Source: a bacterium UBP8_UBA6595
GTDB lineage: Bacteria > Margulisbacteria > Marinamargulisbacteria > UBA6595
Length of the DNA: 22,297 bases
Assembly: GCA_002433595.1 (NCBI GenBank)
Contig: DJIL01000014.1
Location: forward strand, 1 to 22,297
Direction: 5' to 3'
Under the pieces are notes generated by a model. It had not been told where the DNA came from and did not search any database. It saw nothing but the letters and a program-made list of their open reading frames with translations. Positions within the stretch are counted from its first letter, which is position 1, and the number at the start of each line of letters is the position of its first letter. Position numbers and translations under genes: made by a program. This document shows, piece after piece, positions 1,579 through 22,297 of the stretch.

Positions 1579-2212
1579 GCAAGTGAGTCTTTGCCTGAAT
1601 AATAGCCATGTTATCGGCAGCAATGGGTGCCGGAGTATCCACTGGTACATGATTAAACACCAGCCCCATAAGGGGCACTTTAGCAGCACGTAGCGCTTGA
1701 ATCGTGAGCAAACTATGATTGATGCATCCCAGCGTATTGCCGATCACAATAACCGTGGGCAAGTTTAGGGCAGACACACAGTCCAATACCGTTTCTGTTG
1801 GCGTTACCGGGACTAGAATGCCGCCAGCACCTTCGCAAATAACTGTATCGAATTGGTTAGCCAGTCGATAAAAAGCTGCGTAAATTTTTTCAGTATGAAT
1901 GGGCGTGTTTTCTAAGTGTGCGGCCAAATGGGGGGATGCCGGATAGGCAAACTGATACGGACAGCAATCGGCTAAATACGGCATGAGGGCGGCGGTACCT
2001 CGTTGCCGAATAACCCAGTGCGTGTTTAAATCCTCTGGAATCGGGGCGGTACAGCCCGTCTGAACCCATTTTTGAGTGATTACTTGCCGTGTTGTTTGCA
2101 AGTGCTTGGCAATTAAGCCGGTAACAACAGTTTTTCCCACGCCGGTATTGGTACCCGTGATAAATAGGTGCTGGGGCCATTCAATCGTGGATGGAAGTGT
2201 AAAGTCAATCAT
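1544..2212 (-). CDS. bioD: Dethiobiotin synthetase
   Basis: P-loop ITGTNTGVGKT and the motifs CEGAGG and GCINH are diagnostic of BioD. Its ATG overlaps the bioC stop by 8 nt. Confidence 0.85.
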   Translation of the reverse strand: MIDFTLPSTIEWPQHLFITGTNTGVGKTVVTGLIAKHLQTTRQVITQKWVQTGCTAPIPEDLNTHWVIRQRGTAALMPYLADCCPYQFAYPASPHLAAHLENTPIHTEKIYAAFYRLANQFDTVICEGAGGILVPVTPTETVLDCVSALNLPTVIVIGNTLGCINHSLLTIQALRAAKVPLMGLVFNHVPVDTPAPIAADNMAIIQAKTHLPILFSVPDLGS

Positions 2213-2927
2213 AATTTCGGATGCTAATTAAAGAGTGTGTTGCCCAAATGCCCCCAAAATGCCGGCAATAGGTTTCGGCTAAGGCAGAGAGTCGTCGAGG
2301 GGTCCACAATCCACGGGCGGTGGCCATTGAGGTGCCAGTATATTTAATTGTTTTGAGTAAGTCTGTGATGGAGGGATAAGCCACCGATAAGCGGGTATGG
2401 TCAATAACAAGCGGGCCAAATTCGGGGCGCAAATCGCGCACATAATCATCGACTGTTCGAAATGGGGTATTCGGTAGGGGCGTCCTTTGGGGCCAACAAA
2501 TACGAAGGGCTTGGTGTAACTCTGTGTAGGTTTCGGGGCCAAACATATGAATATTAAACCCGCCGTGGGGGGCCAGGTTTTTTCGAATAATCGGCGCGAT
2601 TGGGCCCGTTAGCCAGTGAAGGGTTCCGTGGCTACTAATGAAATCGACACGATCAGGGTGTGTGTAGGTTTCGGCAGAGGCAATCTGCCAGCGGATGGGG
2701 GCGGCATACTTTCGAGCCTGGTCAATCATTTGGGACGATTGGTCCACGCCAGTGATGATGCTTTGGGTATAACGGCTGTGTAGTTTGAGTGTATTTACGC
2801 CAGTGCCACAGCCAATATCTAAAATTTGGTCAGGGGCTCTGGTTGGGTATGTAGGCAAAACGCGGGTAAAAAGGGCCTGTTGTGCGGTACTAAACTGGGT
2901 GTATGTAGGGGCGGCTGTGTCAAACAT
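2205..2927 (-). CDS. bioC: Malonyl-ACP O-methyltransferase (class I SAM methyltransferase)
   Basis: SAM motif I (ILDIGCGTG), and it aligns colinearly with BioC (the HGTLHWL and ELHQAL regions). It sits between bioH and bioD. Confidence 0.75.
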   Translation of the reverse strand: MFDTAAPTYTQFSTAQQALFTRVLPTYPTRAPDQILDIGCGTGVNTLKLHSRYTQSIITGVDQSSQMIDQARKYAAPIRWQIASAETYTHPDRVDFISSHGTLHWLTGPIAPIIRKNLAPHGGFNIHMFGPETYTELHQALRICWPQRTPLPNTPFRTVDDYVRDLRPEFGPLVIDHTRLSVAYPSITDLLKTIKYTGTSMATARGLWTPRRLSALAETYCRHFGGIWATHSLISIRNYD

Positions 2928-3570
2928 GGGTATTGCGATGACGGCACAGTTGATGCTGGAAGTCTGTGTTTAGAAAGGGGAAGTGCCCGGTGTTAATCAG
3001 TTGGAGCTCAGTGTTTAGAGCGGCTGCCAACCCGCGTGTCTCTTGAATGGGTGCAATGGCATCGTACTGCCCATGATACAAGGTTAAATTGGGCCACTCA
3101 GCCAATAGGGACGTCTGAAACGATTGGGTGAGTACGGACAGACCGGCTAAAAGGGCCTCTTTGGGCCACATTGCGTGACACTGTGTGTGAAAATAGGTAT
3201 GGAATTGGCGGTATTCCTGGGCATTGTGAAAACAGGTTTGGTGAAAGGTGCTAAGAACAGATTCCGGGTGCTTAGCCATTGTTTTTTGAAAGCGGGTAAT
3301 GCTTTTTTTGGGGTAACAAGGGGCCACGCCAACAAGATAGATGTGGTGTAAGTACGGGGCCAAGTCGGGTAGCCATTGGGATAACATGAGTCCGCCCATC
3401 GAAAAAGCGAGGCAGTCCATAGGGGCGTGCATGCGCGCATACGCTACCCATGGTTCGGGGTCTTGGTGCCAGCTTGATTGGTACCCTACATCGGGTATTC
3501 TGTAACCGGGGGAATACTGAAAGCAGTCGGGAGAAAACCCCCATCCGGGGAGTATTAGCAAGGGCCTCAT
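2920..3570 (-). CDS. bioH: Pimeloyl-ACP methyl ester carboxylesterase (alpha/beta hydrolase, BioH-like)
   Basis: LLILPGWG oxyanion region, nucleophile elbow AFSMGG, and C-terminal LYHGQYD...GHFPF, all BioH-like. I take the ATG at 3570..3568, which forms an ATGA overlap with the bioF stop. The ORF-track start at 3588 is a GTG. Confidence 0.65.
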   Translation of the reverse strand: MRPLLILPGWGFSPDCFQYSPGYRIPDVGYQSSWHQDPEPWVAYARMHAPMDCLAFSMGGLMLSQWLPDLAPYLHHIYLVGVAPCYPKKSITRFQKTMAKHPESVLSTFHQTCFHNAQEYRQFHTYFHTQCHAMWPKEALLAGLSVLTQSFQTSLLAEWPNLTLYHGQYDAIAPIQETRGLAAALNTELQLINTGHFPFLNTDFQHQLCRHRNTHV

Positions 3571-4688
3571 GTCTGTATTGAGTGCCACGCAGTGGCCAGT
3601 TGATCAATATCAGACAGCCGATGATTAGCGCGTAGGCTAATTCGAATTAAATCGGTGTGTTTGGGTACCGTTGGGTGTCGAATGGCTGTAGCAATGATCC
3701 CCTGCTGAGCCAAGGCATGGGTATAAGCAAGCGCTTTTTCAGGACAGCCAACCGGTAATGGGACAATGTGATGCTTAGCGGTCGGGGAACAACCCGTGGG
3801 GAGGGTCGTATGACAATAGCGTGTAAGAGTCGCCAATGCCAGTTGGTGCTGGCTATGGTTTTGGGTAACTGTTGCTAGATTGACCCCAGCAACAAAGGGC
3901 GGTAAGGCTGTTGAGTAAATAAACGGTCGGCATCGATTAATGAGGTAGTCGCGTAGCTCAGGCGAACCGCCAATAAAGGCGCCCATACTTCCCCAAGCTT
4001 TGCCAAAGGTTCCAATGATAATATCAACAGCATCCAAAATATGGTGTGCGTCAGCGAGCCCCATGCCGGACGGGCCGTAGCAACCCACCGCGTGGGCTTC
4101 GTCCACAATCAATTGGGCCTTGGCATCGCATTTAAGTTGAATTAATCGCTCAAAGTTGCACGAAGCCCCCGTCATGCTGAATAAGGATTCGGTGACAATG
4201 AATAATCGATTGTAGTTTGCACGGTGCTTCTGAATTAAATACCCTAAATGATCATAATCAGTATGCCGATAGCGTTTAAACGTAGCGGCGGATAGCCGAG
4301 CGCCGTCAATTAGGCTGGCATGACAGGCACGATCTGCTAAAATCAAATCAGAACGCTGAGGGAGGCATCCCAATAGGCCAGTATTGGCATGGTAGCCAGA
4401 GTTTACCACTAATGCAGACTTGCCCAGACGTATAGAGAGGGCCGATTCTAAATCGCATAGCGTGGGGTATTGCCCACTTAATAACCGAGAGCCAGTGGCC
4501 CCTGCGCCATAATGGTTGGCGGCAGCTAACCCTGCTTGAATGCGGGAGTAATCCGTTGTTAATCCTAGATAGTCGTTGGTATTAAAGACAATTAATGACG
4601 CATCAGAGCCGGAGACTTGATCGGGAAGTGTGCGGTATGAATGGGTGTCTTTAAGTTTAGATAGCGTATGATTTAAAAAGCGATCCAA
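3567..4688 (-). CDS. bioF: 8-amino-7-oxononanoate synthase (PLP-dependent)
   Basis: Colinear with BioF/AONS family proteins (NDYLGL, FSMTG, and the TFGKA PLP-lysine region). The only possible start is the TTG at 4688..4686, 3 nt after the ftsZ stop. Confidence 0.85.
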   Translation of the reverse strand: MDRFLNHTLSKLKDTHSYRTLPDQVSGSDASLIVFNTNDYLGLTTDYSRIQAGLAAANHYGAGATGSRLLSGQYPTLCDLESALSIRLGKSALVVNSGYHANTGLLGCLPQRSDLILADRACHASLIDGARLSAATFKRYRHTDYDHLGYLIQKHRANYNRLFIVTESLFSMTGASCNFERLIQLKCDAKAQLIVDEAHAVGCYGPSGMGLADAHHILDAVDIIIGTFGKAWGSMGAFIGGSPELRDYLINRCRPFIYSTALPPFVAGVNLATVTQNHSQHQLALATLTRYCHTTLPTGCSPTAKHHIVPLPVGCPEKALAYTHALAQQGIIATAIRHPTVPKHTDLIRISLRANHRLSDIDQLATAWHSIQT

Positions 4689-4691
4689 GAC

Positions 4692-5978
4692 TTACTTGCG
4701 TAAAAAAGCAGGGAATTCCAAATCATCGCTTAAAGAATCAGATACAATATCTGCGTCCTCGGGTCGGGGACGGTTAATAGCGTATTGAACGGGCGGCCGC
4801 TCAACGGGTGGTTGAGGGGAGGCAGGCGATTCCGTGAATTGAGGCTTTGATCCGGACGATTCTACAGAATAGGGGGTGCCAATAGATGATGCATTAGGCT
4901 CAGGTTCTAAGAGAGACGGGGGGGCTGGCATGGGGGCAGCCGTTGAAGCGGTCACCGTTTCAGCCGTAGGCTTGTCTTCCAAGTGGTCACGGGGTATAGA
5001 GGTTCGAGACGCGGGCTGGTGCTTATCGGGCTTAAACCCAGTCGCGATGACGGTTACAATTAAATGATCTTCAGCGTTTTTATCAATAACGGATCCGAAT
5101 ACAATATTAGCATTGGACTGATCAACCGCTTCATAGATAGTTTGGGCGGCTTGATCAACCTCATGTAAACTCATGGTCTCACTACCGGTTATATTAATAA
5201 TAACGCCACTAGCCCCAGTAATTGTTTCTTCAAGTAGTGGCGAAGAAATGGCTTGCTCAGCGGCTTCAATAGCCCGGTTTTCGCCACTGGCTTTTCCAAT
5301 ACCCATCATGGCAGATCCAGAGTCAGACATAATCGTGCGAACATCGGCAAAGTCTAAATTGATTAAACCTGGAATTGTAATTAAATCAGCGATCCCTTGA
5401 ACCCCTTGGCGCAGAACATCATCGGCCATTTTAAACGCATCGATTAATGTTGTCATTTTTTCTGTAATTTTAAGTAACTGGTCGTTGGGAATGACAATTA
5501 AGGCATCAAGCTCATCACGAAGTGACTGCACACCGTATTCAGATTGCTGCAATCGAACAGGCCCTTCAAATCGAAATGGCTTAGTGACAACGCCAATAGT
5601 CAAGGCACCGGCTTCTTTAGCAATTTTGGCAATCATAGGGGAAGCCCCAGTCCCGGTTCCACCCCCCATTCCAGCAGTAATGAACACCATATCGGCACCT
5701 TCAATGGCCATTTTGATATCGTCTTTACTTTCTTGGGCAGATTGCTCCCCCATTTGAGCTTGAGCCCCACAGCCAAGCCCTTTTGTTATCTTGGTTCCTA
5801 ACTGCAATTTATGATCAGATAAGCTAGTGTTTAATGCCTGAAGATCGGTGTTCATTACCCAAAACTCAACCCCTGTAAGATTGGACGCAATCATTCGATT
5901 GACTGCGTTTGTACCACCACCACCAACACCAATAACTTTTATGTTTGCATATTTATTTAACGAATCATTCGCATTCAT
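4692..5978 (-). CDS. ftsZ: Cell division GTPase FtsZ
   Basis: IKVIGVGGGGTNAVNRM, the tubulin signature GGGTGTG, a long Pro/Ser-rich linker and the conserved C-terminal peptide DDLEFPAFLRK. Confidence 0.95.
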   Translation of the reverse strand: MNANDSLNKYANIKVIGVGGGGTNAVNRMIASNLTGVEFWVMNTDLQALNTSLSDHKLQLGTKITKGLGCGAQAQMGEQSAQESKDDIKMAIEGADMVFITAGMGGGTGTGASPMIAKIAKEAGALTIGVVTKPFRFEGPVRLQQSEYGVQSLRDELDALIVIPNDQLLKITEKMTTLIDAFKMADDVLRQGVQGIADLITIPGLINLDFADVRTIMSDSGSAMMGIGKASGENRAIEAAEQAISSPLLEETITGASGVIINITGSETMSLHEVDQAAQTIYEAVDQSNANIVFGSVIDKNAEDHLIVTVIATGFKPDKHQPASRTSIPRDHLEDKPTAETVTASTAAPMPAPPSLLEPEPNASSIGTPYSVESSGSKPQFTESPASPQPPVERPPVQYAINRPRPEDADIVSDSLSDDLEFPAFLRK

Positions 5979-6026
5979 TTCATGAAACAGTTTAGCATAC
6001 TCACTTGCCGAATGCTAGGTATTGAT

Positions 6027-6056
6027 TTGACAATACGCGTGTTCGTTTTGTACGAT
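6027..6056 (+). promoter_or_regulatory. Candidate sigma70 promoter (TTGACA-N18-TACGAT) for the lipoprotein gene, within the ftsZ/lipoprotein divergent region.
   Basis: TTGACA at 6027..6032 and TACGAT at 6051..6056. The spacer is 18 nt and the ATG is at 6076. Confidence 0.3.
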
Positions 6057-6075
6057 TTCCAATACGGATTCTTGC

Positions 6076-6468
6076 ATGGTTCATAAAATTTACATTGTAG
6101 TTTTGGTTTCTTTAGTCCTAACGGGGTGTGCCGGTCGATCCGCCATGCATCGCGAATCGACAGTGGCCGGCCGTGCGTTGCCTAAGCCCGTAATGCATCA
6201 AATGATTCACAAGCATGTTAAAGAAGGAACCACACAGCGTGCAGATATAGTGGCTACTTTTGGATACCCCAGCAGCACGTTTCAATCGGAACGTGGGCGA
6301 ACTGTTTGGTACTACCCAGGTATGGGGTACCACGCTAATGCCAAAAAAAGACACTTTAAACTGCATCAGGCCACCGATCCTCAGGCCGTCGATCTGGTGA
6401 TCATCTACGGGGATGATTCGTTTGAAAACACCGTGGCTCAGGTGCGGATAATGCCCGCACACTTATAG
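6076..6468 (+). CDS. Small outer-membrane lipoprotein, BamE (SmpA/OmlA)-like
   Basis: Lipoprotein signal peptide with lipobox LVLTGC. A G-T-x-x-x-V-x-x-x-G-P...W-Y-Y pattern (KEGTTQRADIVATFGYPSS...TVWYY) resembles the BamE fold motif. Confidence 0.45.
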   Translation: MVHKIYIVVLVSLVLTGCAGRSAMHRESTVAGRALPKPVMHQMIHKHVKEGTTQRADIVATFGYPSSTFQSERGRTVWYYPGMGYHANAKKRHFKLHQATDPQAVDLVIIYGDDSFENTVAQVRIMPAHL

Positions 6469-6471
6469 TTA

Positions 6472-6491
6472 GGGCCAGGCTGCCTAGGCCC
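6472..6491. terminator. GC-rich hairpin between the convergent lipoprotein and lptFG genes; possible bidirectional terminator.
   Basis: GGGCCAGG ctg CCTaGGCCC gives an 8-bp stem with one bulge. It overlaps the lptFG stop, and the flanking T/A runs are weak. Confidence 0.25.
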
Positions 6492-7578
6492 GGACTTTGA
6501 CTTGGTACCAAATGAAACTAATTCCCAACAGCAATAAATTGGGAATCCAGGCTGCAATAACAGGGTATAACCAGCCCAGAAGACACCCCCCCATAGCGAC
6601 AGATAAAAGAACGTAATAGGCAATAATAGTCCCAACCCCAACACCAAGGTTAGCCATAGACCGTGTGCGTTGAAACGAAAGGCTCATGAGTGCACCGATA
6701 ATGGCAAAGGTCAATGTGGTAAATGGAAGTGAAAACTTAACATGTAGATTAAACTGGTCATCTCGGCTAAACCGGCCCGTTGCTTCTTTTTGCTGAATTT
6801 GAGTTTTGAGTGCTTGACTACTTAGTTGTTCCGCGCGGGATTCAGTCGCATGAATGCGATCCGGGGGAACCGTCAAAGGCGTGCGCCAGCCAGTGGTAAT
6901 GGCTGATGTGTGAATATGACTGGGTTGAATGACAAATTGAATCCCCTGATTGAGCGCCCAATAACCACCACGCCAATGGGCGCTTGCCGCTTTGGTGACT
7001 CGATAAATGCGGGAATCGTTATTGTCATTGGTATATTCAATGAGCGTTGGAGTGCTCAATGTGTACGGTTCATTGGGGGTTGGCATGGCGTGCAAGCTAT
7101 AGCTAAGGTGCCCGTTGCTTTTGAATGATTGATAGTGAATGGCGGATACTGTCGCTGAACGGCTCAATGGCTGCGTAATTCGCGCAGCGGCTTGGTTGCT
7201 TGGGGCAACGCCATATTCATTAGCCCCAATGCTAAGCATGCTGAGAAAAAAGCTAATCCAAACAATGGGCTGAATAATTCGGGGAATCGACAGGCCCATA
7301 GCCCGAACGCTAACAATGGCTAATTGTTGGTTTAACTGACTCATGCTAACAAGGCTTGCGCATAAACTGCTCATGGGAATAGCATATAAAACAATGCTGG
7401 GAAATTGAAACAAAAGCAATAACATGGCGGGTTGAAATGACAGCGAATACTCATTGACGGTGGCAATCCAGGTGATTAATTGGGTGGCTGCCATTAGGAT
7501 AATACTGATCATAAGTAGGCTAAACACAAATGTTTTGCTCCATTCAGTGAGTAAATGGCGATCAAACCGTGTGATCAT
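6484..7578 (-). CDS. LPS export ABC permease, LptF/LptG (YjgP/YjgQ) family
   Basis: 3 TM + large periplasmic domain + 3 TM topology. Its start overlaps the lptB stop (ATGA). Only one F/G-family gene is present in the window. Confidence 0.8.
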   Translation of the reverse strand: MITRFDRHLLTEWSKTFVFSLLMISIILMAATQLITWIATVNEYSLSFQPAMLLLLFQFPSIVLYAIPMSSLCASLVSMSQLNQQLAIVSVRAMGLSIPRIIQPIVWISFFLSMLSIGANEYGVAPSNQAAARITQPLSRSATVSAIHYQSFKSNGHLSYSLHAMPTPNEPYTLSTPTLIEYTNDNNDSRIYRVTKAASAHWRGGYWALNQGIQFVIQPSHIHTSAITTGWRTPLTVPPDRIHATESRAEQLSSQALKTQIQQKEATGRFSRDDQFNLHVKFSLPFTTLTFAIIGALMSLSFQRTRSMANLGVGVGTIIAYYVLLSVAMGGCLLGWLYPVIAAWIPNLLLLGISFIWYQVKVRA

Positions 7579-9807: not shown

Positions 9808-10813
9808 TAGATTTTTCCGCTTCTTTTGCGAGTCCAAACCGATCCATGAGTTGCTCTCGGAGTGTTGCCATAAGGGCTGGGTTTTCTTTTAAATACGTTT
9901 TTGCTGATTCTCGTCCTTGGCCCATGCGTTGATCGCCAATTGAAAACCAGGTACCGCTTTTTTCAATTAAATCAAATTTAACAGCGAGGTCTAGGGTGTC
10001 CCCGGTCGCTGAAATTCCTTCACCAAACATAATGTCAAATTCAGTTAGTTTAAATGGCGGTGCAAGTTTGTTTTTAACAATTTTGACACGCACTTTAATA
10101 CCAATCATATCAGTGCCGGACTTGAGGGTTTCAATTCGACGCACATCTATACGCAAAGAAGAGAAAAATTTGAGGGCACGTCCCCCGGGAGTAACCTCAG
10201 GGTTTCCAAACATTACACCAATTTTTTCTCGAATTTGGTTGACAAAAATTATTCCGGATTGTGATTTGTTTACAATTCCGGTGAGCTTGCGCAAGGCTTG
10301 CGACATTAGGCGCGCTTGAACGCCCATGACAGAGTCGCCCATTTCGCCTTCAATTTCGGATTTTGGCGTTAAGGCGGCAACGGAATCAACGACCACCAAG
10401 TCCACAGCACCCGATCGGATTAACGCTTCAGCAATTTCTAATGCCTGTTCGCCATAATCAGGCTGAGACAGTAGCAAGCTTTCAACCTGAACCCCAATTT
10501 TTTTAGCATACTTGGCATCAAAGGCATGCTCAGCGTCAATAAAGGCACACACACCACCTTGTTTTTGAGACTCAGCAATTGCATGAATAGCCAATGTCGT
10601 TTTTCCCGATGATTCTGGTCCAAAAAGCTCAACAATTCGCCCTCTTGGGTATCCGCCAATGCCCAATGCCACATCCAAGGACAAGGCACCCGTTGGCACT
10701 ACGCTGAGCGCACGGTCCGGGGCATCGCCCAGTCGCATAATAGACCCTTTTCCATGCGATTTTTCAATTTGGGCAATCGCAAATCCCAATGCTTTTTGTT
10801 TTTGTTCATCCAT
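9800..10813 (-). CDS. recA: Recombinase RecA
   Basis: [19 protein letters not shown], Walker [10 protein letters not shown], and the L2-loop region. There is an AAGGA SD about 11 nt upstream of the ATG. Confidence 0.95.
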
Positions 10814-10885
10814 ACTAAATGTAGTCCTTGTTTATAATTACGAGTCAAAATGACGATACTGTTACTGTGTGATAGCGATAGCCCT

Positions 10886-11392
10886 TCAGTGGCTATTGCG
10901 CACACGCCGCATACAATAGTGTACCAGGGTTGCGCTGCCGATGACAGTCTCAAGTGACGGAGAATCGGGGCGGTCGGGCATTGGGACCGGCATGGATTCT
11001 GTGTGATTGGCATAGCTAACGCCAATATAGAAGCATCGGTTAGTAGTGTTGTAGTCGCTGAGTGCTAGCCCCAAGGATGTGGCATACACATGCCGGAGCT
11101 GCTTCGCTAAATACTGAGTGAACGGTTCACTGGAGGTTCCGTGCTCGCGAATAATTTGAGGTGACAGGCCCAAGGGGCGAATCAGCACGCTGGGGTGATG
11201 AATGGTCGTTGTGGCAGCCATGTGACGGGGTAAGTGGTGAGACATCCAGTAGCTAAATAAGCCATGGGCACCGATATCGGCAAGGCTAACCGTGAGCCCT
11301 ACAAAGTCTGCGGCGAGCTGATCCACAAGTGTTTCCGTTTGCTTAGCTTGAATTTCTGTTAAAATTGATTCAAATGCGTGCAAATTACGCAA
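10886..11392 (-). CDS. CinA C-terminal domain/PncC-like protein (divergent)
   Basis: Colinear with the CinA C-domain/PncC, including GLxxxWxS and REHGTSSEP (compare the conserved AQHGAVSEP region). The conserved ESCTGG block is replaced by LADIGAHG. It has a TTG start, lies 6 nt after the metK stop, and sits immediately upstream of recA as pncC does in E. coli. Confidence 0.55.
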   Translation of the reverse strand: MRNLHAFESILTEIQAKQTETLVDQLAADFVGLTVSLADIGAHGLFSYWMSHHLPRHMAATTTIHHPSVLIRPLGLSPQIIREHGTSSEPFTQYLAKQLRHVYATSLGLALSDYNTTNRCFYIGVSYANHTESMPVPMPDRPDSPSLETVIGSATLVHYCMRRVRNSH

Positions 11393-11398
11393 TCCCGC

Positions 11399-12553
11399 TT
11401 ACCGTGAGTAAGCCGGGGCTAGCTTCTGTTGAATTTCAGCCACTTTGTTGGTTTGTTCCCATGTGAATTCATCACGGCCAAAGTGCCCATAGACGGCCGT
11501 ATTTGAAAATATGGGCGAGCACAACGATAACGTGCGAATAATACCCGCGGGCGTTAAGTCAAACGTATCTCGAATTAGGGCAACCAAAGCATCGGTGTCA
11601 TGCTGGCTGTCGCTGGTGACGTGAATAGACACTGGATCGGCAATTCCAATCGCATAAGCCAATTGAATTTCCATGTGGGTCGCTAGTCCGGCAGCCACTA
11701 GGTTTTTCGCAATATAGCGCGCCATGTACGCAACACTTCGGTCAACTTTAGAGGCGTCTTTTCCAGAAAAAGCACCGCCGCCGTGGCGGGCCCAGCCACC
11801 ATAAGTGTCCACGATGATTTTTCGGCCAGTTAGCCCAGCGTCCCCTTTAGGCCCCCCAATAACAAATCGGCCACTGGGATTGATTAAAAAGCGAGTCGTG
11901 TCGTCCACTAGTTTTTTAGGTAGAACAGTGGGGAAAATATGGGTATGCAAGGCGTTTGTCAATGTATCTGTGTCAACCGCTTCAGTATGCTGGGTAGAGA
12001 TAACCACAGTATGGATTCGAACTGGCGTGTTGCCAGAGTATTCAACGGTTACTTGTGATTTAGCGTCAGGAAGCAAGTAATCCACCGCACCGGAATGCCG
12101 AAGTTTGGCCAGCGCATGAACCAATTTATGCGATAGCATAATAGGCAATGGCATTAGCTCGGGGGTTTGGCTGCAGGCATACCCGAACATCAACCCTTGG
12201 TCGCCGGCACCCAACTGATGGGGGTCTTCGTGGGTAATACCGTGATGAATGTCGGCGGATTGCTGGTTAATGACGGACTGAATGGTACACTGATTGGCAT
12301 CAATGCCAATCGCGCGATTGGTGTAGCCAATTTGGGCTAATTTAGCACGAACAATTTGCTCGATATCAAGCGTTGCGGTTGTTGTGATCTCGCCGCCCAC
12401 CAGGACAAGGTCATTGGATATAAAACATTCAGCAGCGACTCGGCTGGCGGGGTCTTGGGCTAAACAGGCATCCAAAATACTATCGGACAACTGGTCACAA
12501 ATTTTATCGGGGTGACCTTCGGATACGGACTCGGATGTAAATAAGTAATGCAT
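11399..12553 (-). CDS. metK: S-adenosylmethionine synthetase
   Basis: GHPDKICDQ and the GGGAFSGKD P-loop-like motif. A strong AAGGAG SD precedes the ATG. Confidence 0.95.
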   Translation of the reverse strand: MHYLFTSESVSEGHPDKICDQLSDSILDACLAQDPASRVAAECFISNDLVLVGGEITTTATLDIEQIVRAKLAQIGYTNRAIGIDANQCTIQSVINQQSADIHHGITHEDPHQLGAGDQGLMFGYACSQTPELMPLPIMLSHKLVHALAKLRHSGAVDYLLPDAKSQVTVEYSGNTPVRIHTVVISTQHTEAVDTDTLTNALHTHIFPTVLPKKLVDDTTRFLINPSGRFVIGGPKGDAGLTGRKIIVDTYGGWARHGGGAFSGKDASKVDRSVAYMARYIAKNLVAAGLATHMEIQLAYAIGIADPVSIHVTSDSQHDTDALVALIRDTFDLTPAGIIRTLSLCSPIFSNTAVYGHFGRDEFTWEQTNKVAEIQQKLAPAYSR

Positions 12554-12819
12554 AAGCGACTGCTCTCCTTTTTAATTGTTTAAACACGAACTATTTATTT
12601 TAAATCTAATTTTAATTATATCAGATATACTGAAATGATCAAAAAATTAACCGGTTTATGCCTTTGAATCAACTGTCAGGGATAGGCAGGCTATAGTACC
12701 GGCCATAGTCGTAGAGCCCCCCAAACTGCCAGTCAACAAAATGGTGGATATGTCGCTTTGGTTGAAGGGGGGTTAAACGGGGTGACAGCAGGTGGGATTT
12801 CCGATATGATTAGTAGCCT

Positions 12820-15419: not shown

Positions 15420-16499
15420 ATGAATCGGTGGCCGGGCGTTGTTGAGTATTATAAGCAGTACCTCCCGGTTACGGATCAAACGCCCATTGTATCGTTAAAT
15501 GAAGGGGCTACCCCGTTAATTCAGCTGAAGCGGTTGCCGAGTAAATTTGGGGTCCATGCCGATTGGTATGTGAAATTTGAAGGGCTTAATCCAACCGGGT
15601 CTTTCAAAGATCGGGGTATGTGTATGGCTATGAGTAAAGCCGCTGAGGCGGGTTCTAAAATCGTTATGTGTGCCTCAACGGGCAATACATCAGCAGCGGC
15701 GGCGGCATACGCTGTGCGCGCGGGCATGCGGTGTGTGGTGGTGATTCCGGAAGGGAAAATTGCTCTGGGTAAGTTATCGCAAGCCATGATTAAGGATGCA
15801 CTGGTATTGCAAATTCGAGGAAACTTTGATGATGCTTTGCGCATAGTGCGTGATGTGTGTGAGACGCACCCGATAGCGTTGGTTAATTCGGTTAATCCAT
15901 ACCGAATTGAAGGCCAAAAAACAGGCGCTTTTGAAATTGTTGATCAGTTGGGTGGGCGCGCACCCGATTACCACTTTATTCCCGTTGGCAATGCCGGAAA
16001 TATATCGGCATACTGGAAGGGCTACACAGAGTACTATGAGCACAAAAAAATTACGCAATTGCCCAAAATGATGGGGTATCAAGCTGAGGGCGCGGCTCCG
16101 TTGGTGCTGGGTCATGTGGTGAATACGCCAGAAACAGTGGCTACAGCCATTCGCATTGGCAACCCGGCTAGCTGGCATTTAGCGGAAGCGGCTCGGGACG
16201 AGTCCAAGGGTGTTATTGAATCAGTCACGGATGATGAAATTACCCAAGCCCAGAAATTATTGGCTGCTGAAGAAGGTGTTTTTTGCGAGCCGGCCTCGGC
16301 TGCGTCTGTTGCGGGCGTCATTAAGTCTGTTCAGCATCTGGGGCGGTCGTTTGAGTCTGGGCAAGTTGTGGTGTCGGTGTTAACCGGGCATGGGTTAAAA
16401 GATCCCAACCGAGCCATTGATATTGTGCAACAAGAGCCGGTAGTGGTGAGCAACAATCATGAAGCCGTTGTTTCAGCGCTAAAGCCATTGGGGTTATAG
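15420..16499 (+). CDS. thrC: Threonine synthase (short-type, PLP fold II)
   Basis: The PLP-lysine motif [11 protein letters not shown] is diagnostic of ThrC. The ATG is 3 nt after the upstream stop. Confidence 0.85.
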
Positions 16500-16501
16500 G
16501 G

Positions 16502-17644
16502 ATGAAGTACATCGTCTGTCTAGGTGACGGTATGTCTGACTGGCCCATTGAGGGTTTAGGGAACCAAACACCCTTAGCGTATGCTAAAACACCCAACATG
16601 GATGCGTTGGCAGCCCAAGGTCGTGTGGGGGTAGTGGATACGGTTGAGGCCCCATTTTACCCAGGCTCGGATGTGGCGAATATGGGTATTTTAGGGTACG
16701 ATCCTGCGGAATCTTACACAGGTCGTGCGGCAATTGAATCCGCAGCTATGGGTGTTGATATTCCCAACGGCTACAGTGCATTTCGATGCAATTTAGTCAC
16801 AATAAGCAATGAGACAATGGTTAGCTTTACAGCGCATCATATTGAAACGGCTGCGGCTGCGCGGGTTTTGGATGCCTTAAACCAACACTTTGATGGCCGG
16901 GTGCAGTTTTATGTGGGGGCCAGTTATCGGCATATTGCGGTAATGCCGGGTGCCTATCCCGATATTGTTTGCACACCTCCGCATGATTTAACAGACAAAC
17001 CGGTGGTGGGTCCATCTGAGGGGGGGGCAGCTGTTATCCAAGCCCTAATGACTGAGGCTCAAGCGGTTGTTCAGTCAGTGGGTACAGGGGCAACAGATAT
17101 TTGGCTGTGGAGTCCGGGCACGGCGGTCAATCTGCCGACGTTTCACGTGAAACATGGCTTGACCGGGGGTGTGGTATCCGCCGTGGACGTTGTGAAAGGG
17201 TTGGGCTGTTTAATGGGTATGCACGTGCCAGATGTGCCGGGGGCAACGGGGTTTTTAGATACAAATTATGCAGGAAAATGGGCCGCTGCAACGGCTATCT
17301 TAGAAACCAGTGATTTTGTTTATGTGCATGTGGAGGCCCCGGATGAATGCGGGCATTTGGGCGATGTTGACAAAAAGGTACAAGCGATTGAAGACTTTGA
17401 TGCACATATCATAGGGCCTGCTCGGGCGTATTTAAAGGCCAATCCGGATACAAGGATCATGGTGCTTCCAGATCACGCAACCCCGTGTGCGATTAAGACC
17501 CATTCGCGAGAAGCCGTTCCGGTGGTGCTGGCCGGTCTGGGTATTGCATCCAATGGGGCAACGAAGTATTCGGAGGCTGTGGCGGTTCAAACGGATTGGC
17601 ATGAAACGACGCCCTGGGCATTGTTTAAACAGCTGATTTGTTAA
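16502..17644 (+). CDS. ApgM-family (cofactor-independent phosphoglycerate mutase-like, alkaline-phosphatase superfamily) protein; proposed non-orthologous homoserine kinase
   Basis: The N-terminus CLGDGMSDWP...TPNMD and overall colinearity match the archaeal-type iPGM/'proposed homoserine kinase' family, which commonly sits next to thrC. Here it starts 2 nt after the thrC stop. Confidence 0.65.
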   Translation: MKYIVCLGDGMSDWPIEGLGNQTPLAYAKTPNMDALAAQGRVGVVDTVEAPFYPGSDVANMGILGYDPAESYTGRAAIESAAMGVDIPNGYSAFRCNLVTISNETMVSFTAHHIETAAAARVLDALNQHFDGRVQFYVGASYRHIAVMPGAYPDIVCTPPHDLTDKPVVGPSEGGAAVIQALMTEAQAVVQSVGTGATDIWLWSPGTAVNLPTFHVKHGLTGGVVSAVDVVKGLGCLMGMHVPDVPGATGFLDTNYAGKWAAATAILETSDFVYVHVEAPDECGHLGDVDKKVQAIEDFDAHIIGPARAYLKANPDTRIMVLPDHATPCAIKTHSREAVPVVLAGLGIASNGATKYSEAVAVQTDWHETTPWALFKQLIC

Positions 17645-17674
17645 TTGTGAGTTTTATAGCCTATTTGGTATACT
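17645..17674 (+). promoter_or_regulatory. Candidate sigma70 promoter TTGTGA-N18-TATACT at the head of the phosphonate cassette.
   Basis: -35 at 17645..17650 and -10 at 17669..17674. This 62-bp gap is the only intergenic space between thrC/apgM and licD. Confidence 0.35.
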
Positions 17675-17706
17675 AAGTATATGAAAAAAACTGATAAAGC
17701 GTATAC

Positions 17707-18465
17707 ATGCTGCCAATAATGATGCGCGCTCGGTTTTCTGACATTCGGAAATCATTTTTGCCTCATACAGCAGATCAAATTAAGCCTGTTTCTCATATGG
17801 CGCATACGCCCGATGAATGGTTGGTCCGGTTTCATGCTATTTTAATGCGAGCGGGTGTTCAGCTAACCCCTTTGTATGGCACCTGTTTGGGATTTTTTCG
17901 AGATAATTGCATTATTCCAGGAGATACCGATGCGGATTTTGGAATTGCCCTCTCGGACTTGCCAGCGGTTCGAGCGTGTGTTCCGGAGTTGCTGGCAGCC
18001 GGTTTTTATATTTCCGGTCGGGGGAATTATCAACTCACGTTTAGCATGCCCAACAGCTCATTTTATATTGATATTTGGCCATACAAGGCCTTGAATTTCC
18101 CCCTAACGATGCTGGGGCACCGATGGCTCTGTGATCATGTGTATTACAAAGCTGATTTTTTTTCAGAGTGTCAGCCGTTTAATTACAATGGCTGTACGTA
18201 TTATTTGCCCGCACGGTGTGAGATGTATTTGGAAATGGTATATGGATTAGACTGGAGAACCCCGGTTTCTGGGTGTTTTTCAGGACCTAGAGGCTTAATA
18301 TCCCAATGGATTAATTGGCCATTTATTGATTTTCCGGTGCCATCTGCCTTTTCAGGGGAAGCCCATTTGGGCACCTACAAACCCTGGGCATCTAAACTAT
18401 TAAAAAGAGTAGTTCCCAATGCTCGTATTACACAATTGTTCAAACATCCGGAGGTTAAATCATGA
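17707..18465 (+). CDS. LicD-family phosphotransferase (transfers phospho-/phosphono-alcohols from CDP/CMP donors to glycans)
   Basis: Colinear with the LicD/fukutin family: [11 protein letters not shown]...[11 protein letters not shown] (compare GTLLGAVRH...IPWDDDIDI), YIDIWPY, and a C-terminal YL...[13 protein letters not shown]. The stop overlaps the ppm ATG (ATGA). Confidence 0.7.
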
Positions 18466-20072
18466 ATTTACAAGCAACCACAACAAAACAGCGAAAAACC
18501 ACGCAATTGCGTGCCTTATTTCAACGCTCAGAGTTAGCGTTTTTGATGGAGGCCCATAATGGTTTGTCGGCACGATTGGTCGAAGAAACAGGGTTTTCGG
18601 GCATTTGGGCCAGTGGATTAGCCATTTCAGCGAGCATGGGCGTTCGAGATAACAATGAAGCGTCCTGGACTCAGGTGGTGGATACGTTAGAATTTATGAG
18701 TGATGCCACTTCAATTCCTATTTTATTGGATGGGGATACAGGGTATGGTAATTTTAACAATGTTCGTCGGTTAATTAAAAAGCTGGAACAACGCGACATT
18801 GCGGGCGTGTGTTTAGAAGATAAATTGTTTCCAAAAACCAACTCGTTTTTAAATGGTGAGCAGCAAGAGCTGGCCGATGTGTCGGAGTTTTGCGGTAAAA
18901 TAAAAGCGGCTAAAGACACGCAATCAGACCCCGATTTTTCAGTTGTAGCCCGCATTGAATCGTTTATTGTGGGCATGGGTTTAAATGAGGCATTGGATCG
19001 AGCGTATGCGTACGCCAATGCCGGTGCCGATGCCATTTTGGTTCACAGCAAAAAAGCGGTGCCTGATGATATTGTGGCGTTCATGCAGGCGTGGGATTCG
19101 CCGGTTCCGATTGTTATTGTGCCAACCAAGTACTATGCAACACCGACGGATCAGTTTCGTACCATGGGAATCTCCACGGTAATTTGGGCTAACCACAGCA
19201 TTCGGTCCGCTATGACTGCCATGAAAACAACAATGAAAACTATTTATGATACAGAAACGCTTAAAGATGTCGAACCTAAGATTAGTTCGGTATCGGATAT
19301 TTTTCGGATTCAAGGAGCCGATGAACTAGCGGAGGCCGAAACCCAATATTTGCCGGGTTACAATACCCAACTAGCGGGCATTATTTTAGCGGCAGGTCCC
19401 TCACGTATTGACGGGTTTTCAGGGCCCAAAAGCATGCTTTTAGTTCATGGGAGATCAATTTTAGATCATCAAGTGGATCATTTGGAGCGGTTTGGCATTG
19501 GTCATGTAACCGTGGTGCGTGGGCATGATAAAGCGCAGATGGTATCGGATCGGGTGTCATTTGTGGATAATGATGCATACGCAACAACGTCAGAGGTTTA
19601 CTCATTGGCATTGCTTGCGGATCAGTTGGACACTGCCGCCGTCATTAGTTATGGGGACGTGGTATATAAGCATTATTTTATTCACGAATGTTTAGCTCAT
19701 TCAGGGGATGTCGTTATTGTGGTGGATGTGAACTGCCCCGCGACAGACTCTTGGCGAGACTACGTTCAAGCGAGCGAGGCTTTTGATGCGTTACGCATTC
19801 AGCAATCGCCTACCCTGATTCAAATGGCTCGTTCTATAAGTGCCGATCAAATTTCGGGTGAGTTTGTGGGGCTGATGAAAACAACCAAAACGGGCAGTCG
19901 TGCCATTCAAGCCGCCCTCAGATCTATCGAGTCATCCACCTTAGCCCGTATGACAATGCCTGAGTTTTTAACGGCCTTAAGCCAGACGATTCCGGTGCAT
20001 ATTGTGTATGTTCAAGGGGGATGGGTGGATGTGAATACCCTATCCGATTGGACGGCAGCGGCTGACGTTTAA
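18462..20072 (+). CDS. ppm: Phosphoenolpyruvate mutase fused to a C-terminal LicC-like nucleotidyltransferase domain
   Basis: The N-terminal domain is colinear with PEP mutase and carries the diagnostic EDKx5NS motif ([10 protein letters not shown], nt 18816..18845). The C-terminal domain, from about nt 19368, is nucleotidyltransferase-fold ([10 protein letters not shown]..., [13 protein letters not shown], and a C-terminal [10 protein letters not shown]). A GGAGG SD is 8 nt upstream. Confidence 0.85.
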
Positions 20073-21206
20073 ATGATTTCAGCGCATGCATTTTGCCACG
20101 CATTAGCTGGCCGGGGATTTGATTGCTATACGGGTGTTCCGTGTTCGTTTTTGACCGGTGTTATTAATGTTGCCATGGCGGAATATACCTATATTAACGC
20201 CACCAATGAAGGCGATGCTGTTGCGATTGCCGTGGGCGCGGCTTTGTCAGGCAAGCGACCGGTTGTGCTCATGCAAAACTCTGGTTTGGGCAATGCGGTA
20301 TCACCCCTAACGTCATTAACGCACCCATTTGGTGTACCGGTTCTAACGGTAATTAGTTGGCGGGGGCAGCCAGGTATTCAAGATGAGCCCCAGCATGCAC
20401 TTATGGGGGTCATTACCCCCGATATGGCCCAGTTAATGGGTATGGAAACGATTATTTTTTCCGCGTCCGACTTGCCGGATCAGCTGAATGCGATTGATGC
20501 GGCTTTGGGTCGTGGGCAATCCGTGGCCTGGGTGATTCCGAAGGGGGAGATTGAACCCGTTAAAACTCCGGGTCGGTCCCAGCCGGTACCTCATTCAGGG
20601 GCTATCCAGACCCAATCCGCGCACCCAGGGGTGGTGGGAAGCCGAACCGATGCGTTGAAAACCATTGTAGCGGCGCAACCACCCCACAGTGCGGTGTTGG
20701 CAACCACCGGCAAAACGGGGCGGGAATTATTCACATTAGGGGATCGGGATAATCAGGTCTATCAAGTGGGGTCTATGGGGTGCATAGGGGCGCTGGGTTT
20801 GGGTATTGCGTTGGCCAAGCCGGCATGTCGGGTAATCGTCATTGATGGCGATGGTGCGGCCTTAATGCGGTTGGGATCGTGGGCATCCGTGGGATACTAT
20901 AAGCCCAAGGGGTTCTTGCATATTGTCTTAGATAATGGGGTGCATGATTCAACCGGAGGCCAAGATACGGTGGCGGAGTCTGTTGATTTTGTGGCTTGTG
21001 CACAGGCCATGGGGTATCCGGTGTCAAGGACTGTAGCCAGTTTGGATGAATTGGCTGATCAGATTCAGCAGTGGGCCGCTGAGCCTCAATTAACACTGCT
21101 GCATGTCGCAATTACGCCGGGGAGCCCGGCAACGTTGGGACGACCCACGTGTACACCCGCCGAGGTTGCGGCGCGATTCAAACACTATTTGGCCAACGGG
21201 TTATGA
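20073..21206 (+). CDS. ppd: Phosphonopyruvate decarboxylase (ThDP-dependent)
   Basis: About 375 aa, the typical Ppd size, with ThDP motif GDG...N (VIVIDGDGAALM...LDNGVHDSTGGQ). The ATG immediately follows the ppm stop. Confidence 0.85.
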   Translation: MISAHAFCHALAGRGFDCYTGVPCSFLTGVINVAMAEYTYINATNEGDAVAIAVGAALSGKRPVVLMQNSGLGNAVSPLTSLTHPFGVPVLTVISWRGQPGIQDEPQHALMGVITPDMAQLMGMETIIFSASDLPDQLNAIDAALGRGQSVAWVIPKGEIEPVKTPGRSQPVPHSGAIQTQSAHPGVVGSRTDALKTIVAAQPPHSAVLATTGKTGRELFTLGDRDNQVYQVGSMGCIGALGLGIALAKPACRVIVIDGDGAALMRLGSWASVGYYKPKGFLHIVLDNGVHDSTGGQDTVAESVDFVACAQAMGYPVSRTVASLDELADQIQQWAAEPQLTLLHVAITPGSPATLGRPTCTPAEVAARFKHYLANGL

Positions 21207-22297
21207 TCCGAACAGCGGTTATTCTTGCGGCGGGGAAAGGGTCGCGATTGCGTCCCCACTTGGATCCCCAGTTGCCCAAAGGGGCGCTAACAATCGGGGC
21301 CTGCGCGATGATTGAACGTAGCATTCAGCAATTGCTTGCCCAAGGGATTGACCATATTATTGTGGGTACGGGGCATGGGGCAGATTGGTATGATGCTTTA
21401 GCCACACGCTATCCGGTAACCTGTGTGCCCAACGTGGCGTATGCAACCACAGGCAGCATGGCAACCTTGCGTGCCGTTGTGGCGGCCACCGGCATTCAAT
21501 CTCCGTTGGTGCTTGTGGAGTCGGATTTGATTTATGAACAGGCGGTGCTGGGGGATCTTTTGGAGCATCCAGAGCCCAATTGTGTGTTGGGTATGCGGTA
21601 CCGGGGCTATGGCGATGAGGTGTTTATACAGGTGGATACTCAAGATCATGTGGTTGGCTTAACTAAAACAGCGCCAGCATCCGTTGAAACGGCGCCGGTT
21701 TTGGTGGGTTTAACGACCATTGGCCCGGCCTTATTGTCGGCCATGGTGGCGCACTATGATGCCGCTAAGAACCCGATGATGGATTACGAAGATGCGTTGA
21801 TAGCCGCTAATGAACCAGCGATATGCTTGATGACCGATGGGCAGGCAATGGAAGTGGATGATGCGAATCATCTAAGCATTGCTCAAACGCTCATACTGGA
21901 TATTGAATGCAACGATGCATACCCGGAGCCCAAGCGAACCGTGTTGTTAAATCCGGGGCCAGCGACAACCAGCCAATCGGTTAAACTCGCTCAAATTGTG
22001 CCGGATATTTGCCCTCGTGAGCAGGCGTTTGTTCAGGTGATGGCGGCGTGCCGGCAGCAGGTGTGCGCGTTGGCATCGGCAACATCTGAGGCGGTGGCTG
22101 CGGTCTTTTTTAGTGGATCGGGGACTGCGGCTGTGGAAGCGATGGTCAGTTCGGTGATGCCGGCGAACGGCCATGCGTTAATTATTGATCAAGGGGCGTA
22201 TGGGCAGCGCATGGCCAGTATTGCCCAGGTGCATGGCTTGGCGCATACGGTGTATTCGCCGGATCCGGTGCGGGCGTTGCCGGTATCGGGGGTTGAG
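21203..22297 (+). CDS. Bifunctional LicC-like (PntC-type) cytidylyltransferase / 2-aminoethylphosphonate:pyruvate aminotransferase, 3'-partial
   Basis: Not in the ORF track because it runs off the window. I translated it by hand: the ATG at 21203 overlaps the ppd TGA, and 365 codons follow with no stop. N-domain: MIRTAVILAAGKGSRLRP...KGAL, a canonical sugar-phosphate nucleotidyltransferase motif. From about nt 21932 the sequence KRTVLLNPGPATTSQ...FFSGSGTAAVEAM...LIIDQGAYGQRM matches class-V AEP transaminase (PhnW-like). The same domain order occurs in T. denticola Tde1415. Confidence 0.8.
   Translation, partial: MIRTAVILAAGKGSRLRPHLDPQLPKGALTIGACAMIERSIQQLLAQGIDHIIVGTGHGADWYDALATRYPVTCVPNVAYATTGSMATLRAVVAATGIQSPLVLVESDLIYEQAVLGDLLEHPEPNCVLGMRYRGYGDEVFIQVDTQDHVVGLTKTAPASVETAPVLVGLTTIGPALLSAMVAHYDAAKNPMMDYEDALIAANEPAICLMTDGQAMEVDDANHLSIAQTLILDIECNDAYPEPKRTVLLNPGPATTSQSVKLAQIVPDICPREQAFVQVMAACRQQVCALASATSEAVAAVFFSGSGTAAVEAMVSSVMPANGHALIIDQGAYGQRMASIAQVHGLAHTVYSPDPVRALPVSGVE

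Follow-up and report, generated by a model that had tools for sequence, protein, structure and literature searches.

The window analysed here is a complete NCBI contig of 22,297 nucleotides (DJIL01000014.1) from a bacterium of the Marinamargulisbacteria. It carries four tightly coupled open reading frames (ORFs) on the plus strand, which run from 17707 to the window end at 22297. This locus is a real, compact four-gene operon for the synthesis of 2-aminoethylphosphonate (AEP) and its activation with cytidine triphosphate (CTP), and its first gene encodes a protein of the LicD family that probably transfers AEP from the activated donor, cytidine monophosphate (CMP)-AEP, to an acceptor in the cell envelope. 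The genes and their domains are listed below, with the evidence for each in brackets.

17707-18465, plus strand: ORF1, licD-like, 252 amino acids; LicD-family (fukutin/FKRP-fold) phosphotransferase, proposed CMP-AEP:acceptor 2-aminoethylphosphonyl transferase (Pfam, profile comparison with PDB, fold)
18462-20072, plus strand: ORF2, fusion of ppm with a nucleotidyltransferase (NTase), 536 amino acids
18462-19376, plus strand: phosphoenolpyruvate (PEP) mutase (Ppm) domain, residues 1-305 of the 536-residue fusion (TIGR02320, motif, 1M1B alignment)
19377-20072, plus strand: second nucleotidyltransferase domain at the Ppm C-terminus (NTP_transf_3, LicC-like), residues 306-536 (Pfam PF12804)
20073-21206, plus strand: ORF3, ppd, phosphonopyruvate decarboxylase (Ppd), dependent on thiamine diphosphate (ThDP), 377 amino acids (TIGR03297, TPP domains, motif)
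21203 to window end, plus strand: ORF4, pntC-aept, 365 amino acids inside the window, open at the contig end
21203-21937, plus strand: AEP cytidylyltransferase (PntC) domain, residues 1-245 of the 609-residue PntC-AEPT (6PD1 alignment, NTP_transf_3)
21938-22297, plus strand: AEP:pyruvate aminotransferase (AEPT, PhnW/AepZ) domain, of which the first 120 residues precede the contig end (TIGR03301)

The stop codon of licD overlaps the start of ppm in an ATGA (18462-18465), with GGAGG placed 9-13 nucleotides 5' of the ppm start. The TAA of ppm is followed at once by the ATG of ppd (0 nucleotides apart), and ppd and pntC again share an ATGA (21203-21206). The layout and the junction sequences bear out what an earlier reading made from the sequence alone (the sequence-only reading) had described as four coupled genes on one strand. 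The last gene is truncated at the window end because the window is the whole contig and the contig end cuts this gene.

The N-terminal part of ORF2 scores 387.5 bits against the Ppm equivalog TIGR02320 (cut-off 319.55), whereas it fails the cut-offs of the sister family phosphonopyruvate hydrolase (237.4 bits, cut-off 374.4), of methylisocitrate lyase (152.7 bits, cut-off 354.4) and of carboxy-PEP mutase (92 bits, cut-off 420). The last two were the confusions that the sequence-only reading had proposed to check, and with both far under their own cut-offs the Ppm assignment holds. The domain is 65% identical to the Mytilus edulis enzyme (PDB 1M1B) in a gap-free alignment of 191/292 residues (Ppm residues 7-298, window 18480-19355). 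Residues S46, G47, L48, D58, D85, D87, E114, K120, N122, S123, R159 and H190, which we take to be the catalytic positions (Mytilus numbering), are identical in both. The EDKx5NS motif, which according to Rice et al. (2019, PMC6697681) tells Ppm apart from the remaining members of PF13714, is intact at residue 119. The gene is already annotated as Ppm in GenBank, and its identification as a PEP mutase predicted to interconvert PEP and phosphonopyruvate held up. The domain is far nearer to the mussel structure 1M1B (436 bits) than to the other solved Ppm, 5UNC (268 bits), which makes it and the Mytilus enzyme an unusually close bacterium-animal pair.

The product of ORF3 is similarly well assigned. 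Residues 15-373 of its 377 residues match positions 1-360 of the TIGR03297 equivalog profile with 384.8 bits (cut-off 312.5), Pfam finds TPP_enzyme_N and TPP_enzyme_C domains in it, and the ThDP motif GDG-x26-NG begins at residue 259 (GDGAALMRLGSWASVGYYKPKGFLHIVLDNG). The profile score and the motif uphold the earlier identification of a Ppd with a ThDP motif.

ORF4 carries a GKGSR motif at residue 11 and matches NTP_transf_3 with 50.8 bits (cut-off 27). The full 609-residue protein was read from three contigs that are 99.8-99.9% identical to the window (our labels L001, L016 and L020), and residues 1-602 of the L001 copy align to residues 1-607 of Treponema denticola Tde1415 (PDB 6PD1) with 445.6 bits (E 2.5e-132). 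Tde1415 is a PntC-AEPT fusion for which CMP-AEP synthesis, AEPT activity and the structure have been shown (Rice et al. 2019, PMC6697681; PDB 6PD1/6PD2). R15, K26 and K155 of ORF4 align to R15, K25 and K153 of Tde1415, which Rice et al. mutated, and E106 and the glutamate of a DYE motif align to E104 and E196, which contact the AEP amine (PMC6697681); all of these residues are invariant in the PntC-domain alignment. ORF4 is thus predicted to form CMP-AEP, with a preference for AEP over phosphocholine.

Only the first 120 residues of the AEPT domain lie in the window, and TIGR03301 (PhnW-AepZ) matches residues 247-361 with 111.2 bits against a cut-off of 360.8 that applies to the full-length domain. 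The whole domain from a near-identical contig aligns with Salmonella typhimurium PhnW (PDB 1M32) at 231 bits, and its SNK motif, with the lysine for pyridoxal phosphate, aligns to Tde1415. The end-to-end match to Tde1415 confirms the fusion of a GKGSR-bearing cytidylyltransferase to a PhnW-like aminotransferase that the sequence-only reading had recognized. The same domain also matches a chain of PDB 9os7, deposited as Mycoplasma penetrans methionyl-tRNA synthetase (E 5.9e-13), which suggests a PntC/AEPT-like ancillary domain on that synthetase. In a 2026 paper on the M. penetrans enzyme (PMC13215547), PntC is mentioned seven times.

PhnW-type transamination may also serve the salvage of environmental AEP for phosphorus, and the whole cassette might be read as catabolic. 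The partial aminotransferase domain does match the PhnW models TIGR02326 (82 bits) and NF010006 (84 bits), and sea water is rich in AEP according to a passage in PMC9381506. Nevertheless, we regard this explanation as extremely improbable. Ppm and Ppd are biosynthetic and both pass equivalog cut-offs, the aminotransferase shares one polypeptide with an activating cytidylyltransferase, just like that of the biosynthetic Tde1415, and neither the window nor its relatives contain a phosphonatase (PhnX), PhnA, C-P lyase or AEP transporter gene.

The sequence-only reading had Ppm right and overlooked the second domain of the same protein. Residues 306-421 of ORF2 match NTP_transf_3 (PF12804) with 45.5 bits (cut-off 27). 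The closest solved relative of this NTase domain is Streptococcus pneumoniae LicC (PDB 1JYK, E 1.3e-18), ahead of Tde1415 at E 1.2e-9, and hhalign relates it to PntC domains at 20% identity (probability 97.7%). The glycine-rich loop retains its Arg/Lys, and the lysine of the PK motif, both metal-binding aspartates and, where K153 would stand, a basic residue are likewise preserved. An invariant tyrosine (SYGD) stands in place of E104 of Tde1415, and E196 has no conserved counterpart, so that the AEP-binding pocket of the Tde-PntC type is not found in this domain. The lack of both glutamates does not exclude AEP use through a pocket of the LicC/Ari-PntC type, and the domain could be a second AEP cytidylyltransferase of that type or an enzyme for another substrate. 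The Ppm-NTase fusion also occurs in contigs L007, L008, L009, L027 and P0048, and according to Rice et al. (2019, PMC6697681) roughly 60% of all Ppm enzymes carry a fused NTase. No substrate assignment for the Ppm-fused PF12804 domain was found in the literature searched.

The product of ORF1 is annotated in GenBank as a hypothetical protein. Pfam LicD (PF04991) matches it at 25.8 bits, marginally above the cut-off of 22.6, with the best stretch at residues 57-94, and the same model matches 22 of 23 diverse subfamily members (best E 3.1e-17). When the subfamily profile was compared with PDB, FKRP (6KAJ) was the sole match (E 4.4e-5). D73, D75 and D77 of ORF1 (GTCLG...DTDAD) align to the D-Y-D-V-D motif of FKRP, and IDIWP, which holds D122, aligns to VDLWP. 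D73 is the same in all 23 members, and the conservation of D75 and D77 is 90% or higher. The AlphaFold2 model, built from a 6-sequence alignment, reaches a mean pLDDT of 59.4 and leaves the C-terminal 65 residues unmodelled; in a Foldseek search with this low-confidence model the top 13 matches were FKRP chains (E 2.4e-7 to 2.8e-6, probability 1.00, TMq 0.44-0.47). No transmembrane segment was detected in ORF1 (maximum KD19 1.27), and the protein is predicted to be soluble. Its assignment to a LicD/FKRP-like family, first made from the sequence alone, held up on the Pfam score and the PDB profile, and the fold matches of the low-confidence model point the same way.

An exhaustive HMMER search of 1.84 billion representative sequences with the LicD-like family returned 26 clusters below 1e-30 and 8,866 below 1e-3; a pattern-based scan of GTDB genomes with the LicD alignment had low recall and gave 3 loci only. 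About 20 full-length members of the subfamily (clusters at 50% identity) share a conserved C-terminal tail (FSG...KPW.S..LK...P....KHP). In all six genomic contexts that span about 9 kb or more, the subfamily gene adjoins ppm, ppd and aept genes (the core), and the proteins across these contexts are only 30-50% identical. The contexts, together with two short contigs, are arranged as follows.

Window clade and sister lineage: LicD, Ppm-NTase, Ppd, PntC-AEPT; same site, 82% nucleotide identity
Marinamargulisbacteria single amplified genome AG-343-D04 (L007): two tandem LicD paralogues (10001-11534), Ppm-NTase, Ppd, PntC-AEPT; different genomic site
L008: LicD and the same core, with an alpha/beta hydrolase inserted
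L027 (more distant relative): PhyH oxygenase, LicD, core, methyltransferase
P0048 contig: LicD on the opposite strand to the adjoining core
L030: GDP-mannose dehydratase, epimerase, ManC, PntC-AEPT, Ppm, Ppd, LicD, DUF268 methyltransferase
L029 (short contig): LicD-like gene beside an ABC exporter, a second LicD and a stand-alone NTase
L033 (short contig): LicD-like gene beside a weak GT1 match

L029, L033 and L032 (1.1 kb) are short contigs outside the count of six, and they are uninformative or show other partners. The two LicD paralogues of L007 are 51% and 39% identical to the window protein, and the Ppm of L030 is stand-alone. In L030, a Logan contig, the gene caller gave only tiny ORFs over 5110-7402 (minus strand), where tblastn revealed Ppm (39% identity) and Ppd (34% identity). 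Precomputed gene tables can thus hide cluster members.

This association makes the tail-bearing LicD subfamily a good candidate for an AEP transferase. It supports the use of CMP-AEP by these proteins, without proving it, and CMP-AEP is proposed as their donor because of it. The donors of characterised LicD-family enzymes are CDP-choline, CDP-ribitol and the like. ORF1 might accordingly be unrelated in function to the phosphonate genes and use another CDP-alcohol such as CDP-choline or CDP-glycerol, while the product of a distant gene would consume CMP-AEP, or AEP would be released free; no report of CMP-AEP use by a LicD-family enzyme was found in the literature searched. We consider this very unlikely. 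The licD stop overlaps the ppm start, the neighbourhood is kept in all six contexts among such divergent proteins, and the window holds no choline kinase, choline permease or other gene of CDP-alcohol synthesis.

The nature of the acceptor is a separate question. The same route to CMP-AEP could end in a phosphonolipid, not a phosphonoglycan, if the LicD-like enzyme moved AEP to a lipid such as diacylglycerol or a glycolipid. The best NCBIfam match of ORF1 is Mf1, the diacylglycerol cholinephosphotransferase of Mycoplasma fermentans (34.1 bits, E 3e-8), which keeps a lipid acceptor open; it lies far under the cut-off of 225 bits and spans 43 residues only. The cassette is devoid of glycosyltransferase and flippase genes, an alpha/beta-hydrolase gene lies in or beside it in L007 and L008, and the basic conserved tail (KPW..LK...P....KHP) could anchor the protein at the membrane surface. 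On the other hand, the L030 member and its AEP genes stand directly beside GDP-mannose dehydratase, epimerase and ManC, one of the short contigs adds an exporter with a second LicD and another the weak GT1 match, and these GDP-sugar, exporter and glycosyltransferase neighbours lean towards glycan acceptors. Moreover, known bacterial phosphonolipid clusters use lipid genes of the CDP-alcohol type, not LicD (PMC8942020). A lipid acceptor is therefore rather unlikely in our judgement. The most likely acceptor would be the hydroxyl group of a sugar in an envelope glycoconjugate whose synthesis is encoded at another genomic site, e.g., lipopolysaccharide (LPS) or another lipid-linked glycan assembled at the cytoplasmic face, because the module lacks glycosyltransferases and flippases, the same core occurs at unrelated sites, and the LicD protein is soluble.

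Taken together, we interpret the locus, with a probability of roughly three in four, as a self-contained phosphonyl-tailoring (pnt) operon which makes AEP, activates it to CMP-AEP and uses LicD to transfer it to an envelope acceptor. Ppm would turn PEP into phosphonopyruvate, and Ppd would irreversibly decarboxylate this to phosphonoacetaldehyde; because the decarboxylation is irreversible, it would draw the mutase reaction, whose equilibrium is unfavourable, towards its product. ORF4 would then transaminate phosphonoacetaldehyde to AEP with its C-terminal AEPT domain and join AEP and CTP to CMP-AEP with its N-terminal PntC domain. Finally, on the cytoplasmic side, the LicD-family enzyme would let an acceptor hydroxyl attack the phosphonate phosphorus of CMP-AEP, so that CMP leaves and the acceptor gains an aminoethylphosphonyl ester, in analogy to phosphocholine decoration by LicC/LicD. 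Curated profile cut-offs and catalytic residues support the first four steps, as does the close homology of these enzymes to characterised ones. Each enzyme of the route from PEP to CMP-AEP named in the sequence-only reading was assigned correctly by these measures, while the LicD transfer and the acceptor are what we infer from family membership and the conserved gene neighbourhood.

Several observations weigh against this interpretation. The organism is uncultured, and the pathway is predicted from its genes. The Pfam LicD score is marginal and confined to residues 57-94, and the structural model of ORF1 has low to moderate confidence (pLDDT 59). The literature searched contained no LicD-family enzyme shown to use CMP-AEP. 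Neither the window nor the near-identical contigs hold a gene for acceptor synthesis, and the local context leaves the target class unconstrained. Additionally, a simple linear pathway does not explain two NTase domains in one cassette. In a tentative and rather doubtful extension of the model, the tail-bearing LicD might be the long-missing dedicated CMP-AEP:acceptor transferase of pnt pathways, which in Marinamargulisbacteria would form a minimal plug-in module acting on a constitutive envelope molecule such as LPS or a glycolipid, and the Ppm-fused NTase, with neither amine-binding glutamate, might activate a phosphonate or nucleotide other than that of the PntC domain. If so, the cassette would supply two distinct activated donors; L007 pairs two tandem LicD paralogues with its two NTase domains.

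The sequence-only reading had suggested that the cassette might extend beyond the window and that glycosyltransferases or flippases should be sought downstream. The region was read on four near-identical contigs (L001, L016, L019 and L020; 99.8-99.9% identity), and past the window end just the remaining 244 codons of the aminotransferase gene belong to the cassette. In one arrangement this gene is followed by a gene for a 228-residue protein without a Pfam match, in another by a 166-residue ORF, a DUF2326 protein and a CTD10 protein, and then leuA. In the 82%-identical sister lineage the cassette is followed by a HEPN/MNT toxin-antitoxin pair and then by glyoxalase and ilvC genes. The variable stretches are:

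L016: 14751-18689
L020: 5697-9635
L001: 13101-13787
L009: 14514-15238

The DNA just 3' of the cassette looks like a variable hot spot for defence-like or toxin-antitoxin genes that differ between 99.8%-identical strains. The cassette ends with its fourth gene, since the near-identical contigs carry strain-variable genes beyond it. No glycosyltransferase or flippase was found downstream in these contigs or in the sister lineage, and the proposed extension of the cassette was rejected.

The upstream part of the window is housekeeping DNA, as the sequence-only reading had stated. It contains an amino-acid permease gene, a biotin operon, ftsZ, lptF/G, lptB, RNase Y, recA and metK, as well as genes for an ABC-F ATPase and a band-7 protein, thrC and an apgM-like gene. 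LptB (344.8 bits, cut-off 240) and LptF/G show that the host has an LPS-bearing envelope with genes for LPS export. The host belongs to a population of Candidatus Marinamargulisbacteria; exact-sequence matches assign its Ppm, ThrC and LicD-like proteins to this group. thrC occupies 15420-16499, and the apgM-like gene (16502-17644, plus strand) starts 2 nucleotides past its stop. The cassette does follow this pair directly, as claimed, while the name apgM is less apt. The product scores 428.2 bits against TIGR02535, the 'proposed homoserine kinase' (cut-off 446.3), and 440.6 bits against the cofactor-independent phosphoglycerate mutase model NF003242 (cut-off 426). It is probably a thrC-linked, non-orthologous homoserine kinase, not a glycolytic mutase. 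Its reading as a PhpG-like phosphonate enzyme was rejected (191.6 bits, cut-off 545). The gene does not adjoin the cassette in L007, L008 or L027, and we place it outside the phosphonate module because it is absent beside the cassette in these other lineages.

GC content is 0.544 for ppd, 0.553 for pntC-aept, 0.445 for licD and 0.466 for ppm, compared with 0.50-0.52 for thrC/apgM and a window mean of 0.477. A recent horizontal-transfer island is not supported, as there is no clear GC sign, the cassette occupies the same site in the 82%-identical lineage, and there is no evidence of a tRNA, an integrase or repeats. Every contig shown for the ThrC cluster that reaches past the apgM-like gene carries the cassette, and the phosphonate trait appears fixed in this clade, not patchy.

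Operons of this design had been described before, by Rice et al. (2019, PMC6697681) and by Li & Horsman (2022, PMC8942020), and the window is a new example, not a new system. Rice et al. (Nat Commun 10:3698, PMC6697681) described pnt clusters of oral anaerobes, especially that of T. denticola around Tde1415. Each of the three studied clusters in their Fig. 3c has a ppm-fused NTase with another NTase one or two genes away, and LicD-like phosphotransferases or glycosyltransferases lie near pnt clusters (PMC6697681). By the text of that paper, the T. denticola cluster shares its core with the window, i.e., Ppm fused to a PF12804 NTase, Ppd and PntC-AEPT. The window differs in its uncultured, marine host from the Margulisbacteria, in its minimal four-gene form with a LicD gene placed first, translationally coupled and unaccompanied by glycan genes, and in the origin of this LicD from a small subfamily with a conserved C-terminal tail. 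The lic1/lic systems of Haemophilus influenzae and S. pneumoniae (LicA-LicB-LicC-LicD) follow the same logic, in which an NTase of the LicC type activates a head group with cytidine, LicD moves it to a glycan hydroxyl and CMP is released, and their pneumococcal LicC (1JYK) is the closest of the solved structures to the Ppm-fused NTase. In the window, however, Ppm, Ppd and AEPT would build the head group de novo, starting from PEP, where the lic systems rely on import and phosphorylation; LicA kinase and LicB permease are absent, and the donor would be the phosphonic-phosphoric anhydride CMP-AEP, not CDP-choline. FKRP (PDB 6KAJ-6KAN) and the window LicD have in common a D-x-D-x-D motif for metal and nucleotide and, further downstream, a D-x-W-P strand, at an identity of only about 21-24%; FKRP resides in the eukaryotic Golgi, has a stem domain in addition, and transfers ribitol phosphate from CDP-ribitol onto a defined O-mannosyl glycan.

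The group-1 phosphonolipid clusters of Burkholderiales, called 'CDP-OH' (PMC8942020), also combine Ppm, Ppd and AEPT with two PntC-type cytidylyltransferases, one of them fused to Ppm. They contain an Fe(II)/2-oxoglutarate oxygenase gene and two phospholipid-synthesis genes and no LicD, whereas the window shows the reverse; among the relatives, L027 with its PhyH-type oxygenase and methyltransferase adds an oxygenase gene to the core. Marine phosphonate synthesis based on Ppm, with a proposed decoration of surface glycoproteins or glycans, was described for Prochlorococcus SB and SAR11 (Acker et al., 10.1101/2020.11.04.368217, PMC8931226). The main text of that work makes no mention of Margulisbacteria, LicD or nucleotidyl activation, and the window clade differs in that the cassette is present in every contig shown for it that reaches past the apgM-like gene. 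What is modestly new in the window is the host lineage, the minimal transferase-first module, the tie of a tail-bearing LicD subfamily to AEP genes, and a Ppm-fused NTase without the amine ligands of Tde-PntC.

The literature searched contained no link between Margulisbacteria and phosphonates, no characterised LicD-type AEP transferase, no CMP-AEP work beyond Rice et al. (2019) and Li & Horsman (2022), and no experimental proof of the enzyme or target of the transfer step after CMP-AEP. According to a passage in Acker et al. (10.1101/2020.11.04.368217), between roughly a fifth and a quarter of the phosphorus in marine dissolved organic matter of high molecular weight is phosphonate. The producers are known in part only. 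With this locus, a widespread marine lineage without cultured members joins the likely producers of AEP bound to macromolecules, and the known logic of phosphonate tailoring is left unchanged. Marinamargulisbacteria are a sister group of Cyanobacteria. A four-gene, transferase-first module with a soluble LicD of 250 residues is also a convenient construct for a heterologous test of the transfer step.

The 5' boundary of the operon needs a correction. The sequence-only reading let the locus begin at 17645, which is the base right after the stop codon of the upstream gene, while the licD-like ORF begins at 17707. Its homologues begin at the equivalents of M5 or M6 (17719/17722), including an 83%-identical homologue and the gene calls of other contigs, which leaves a margin of 4-5 codons for the true start. 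A 12-codon ORF at 17681-17722 overlaps the annotated start at 17707. The spacer of 62 nucleotides between the apgM-like stop and the licD-like start holds one further feature, found by a consensus scan:

17645-17674, plus strand: promoter-like site, TTGTGA-18 nucleotides-TATACT with a TG extension

Such sites are not enriched in the region (10 against 6.8 +/- 3.2 in shuffles), and this one is a weak consensus match whose position alone is notable; it may be taken as suggestive of a promoter upstream of the licD-like gene. No Rfam family reached the gathering threshold anywhere in the window, and a regulatory RNA is not supported. The window also contains no tRNAs.

A few observations concern the remaining genes. 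The biotin operon (1544-4688, minus strand) encodes a bioF-like product at 332 bits (cut-off 426), a BioC-like methyltransferase at 110.8 bits (cut-off 185) and bioD at 147.7 bits, above its cut-off of 83. Within it, a 222-residue ORF (2920-3588) has sub-threshold alpha/beta-hydrolase matches only and is a candidate for a divergent pimeloyl-ACP methyl ester esterase. Between metK and recA, a 168-residue ORF (10886-11392, minus strand) has a sub-threshold match to CinA only (Pfam 18 bits, cut-off 23.5); it resembles the common cinA-recA arrangement, with a CinA that may be divergent or truncated. In the 82%-identical sister lineage, a gene for a ShlB/POTRA two-partner-secretion transporter lies between metK and the ABC-F gene (L009 2561-4243; L021 5665-7347), and the window has only a spacer of 266 nucleotides at this site (12554-12819). 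Finally, contig L013 (CAXPTH010000028.1), titled 'MAG: Alteromonas sp.' (MAG, metagenome-assembled genome), shares synteny and an identity of about 82% with the Marinamargulisbacteria locus along some 12 kb, and is probably a mis-binned contig or part of a mislabelled MAG.

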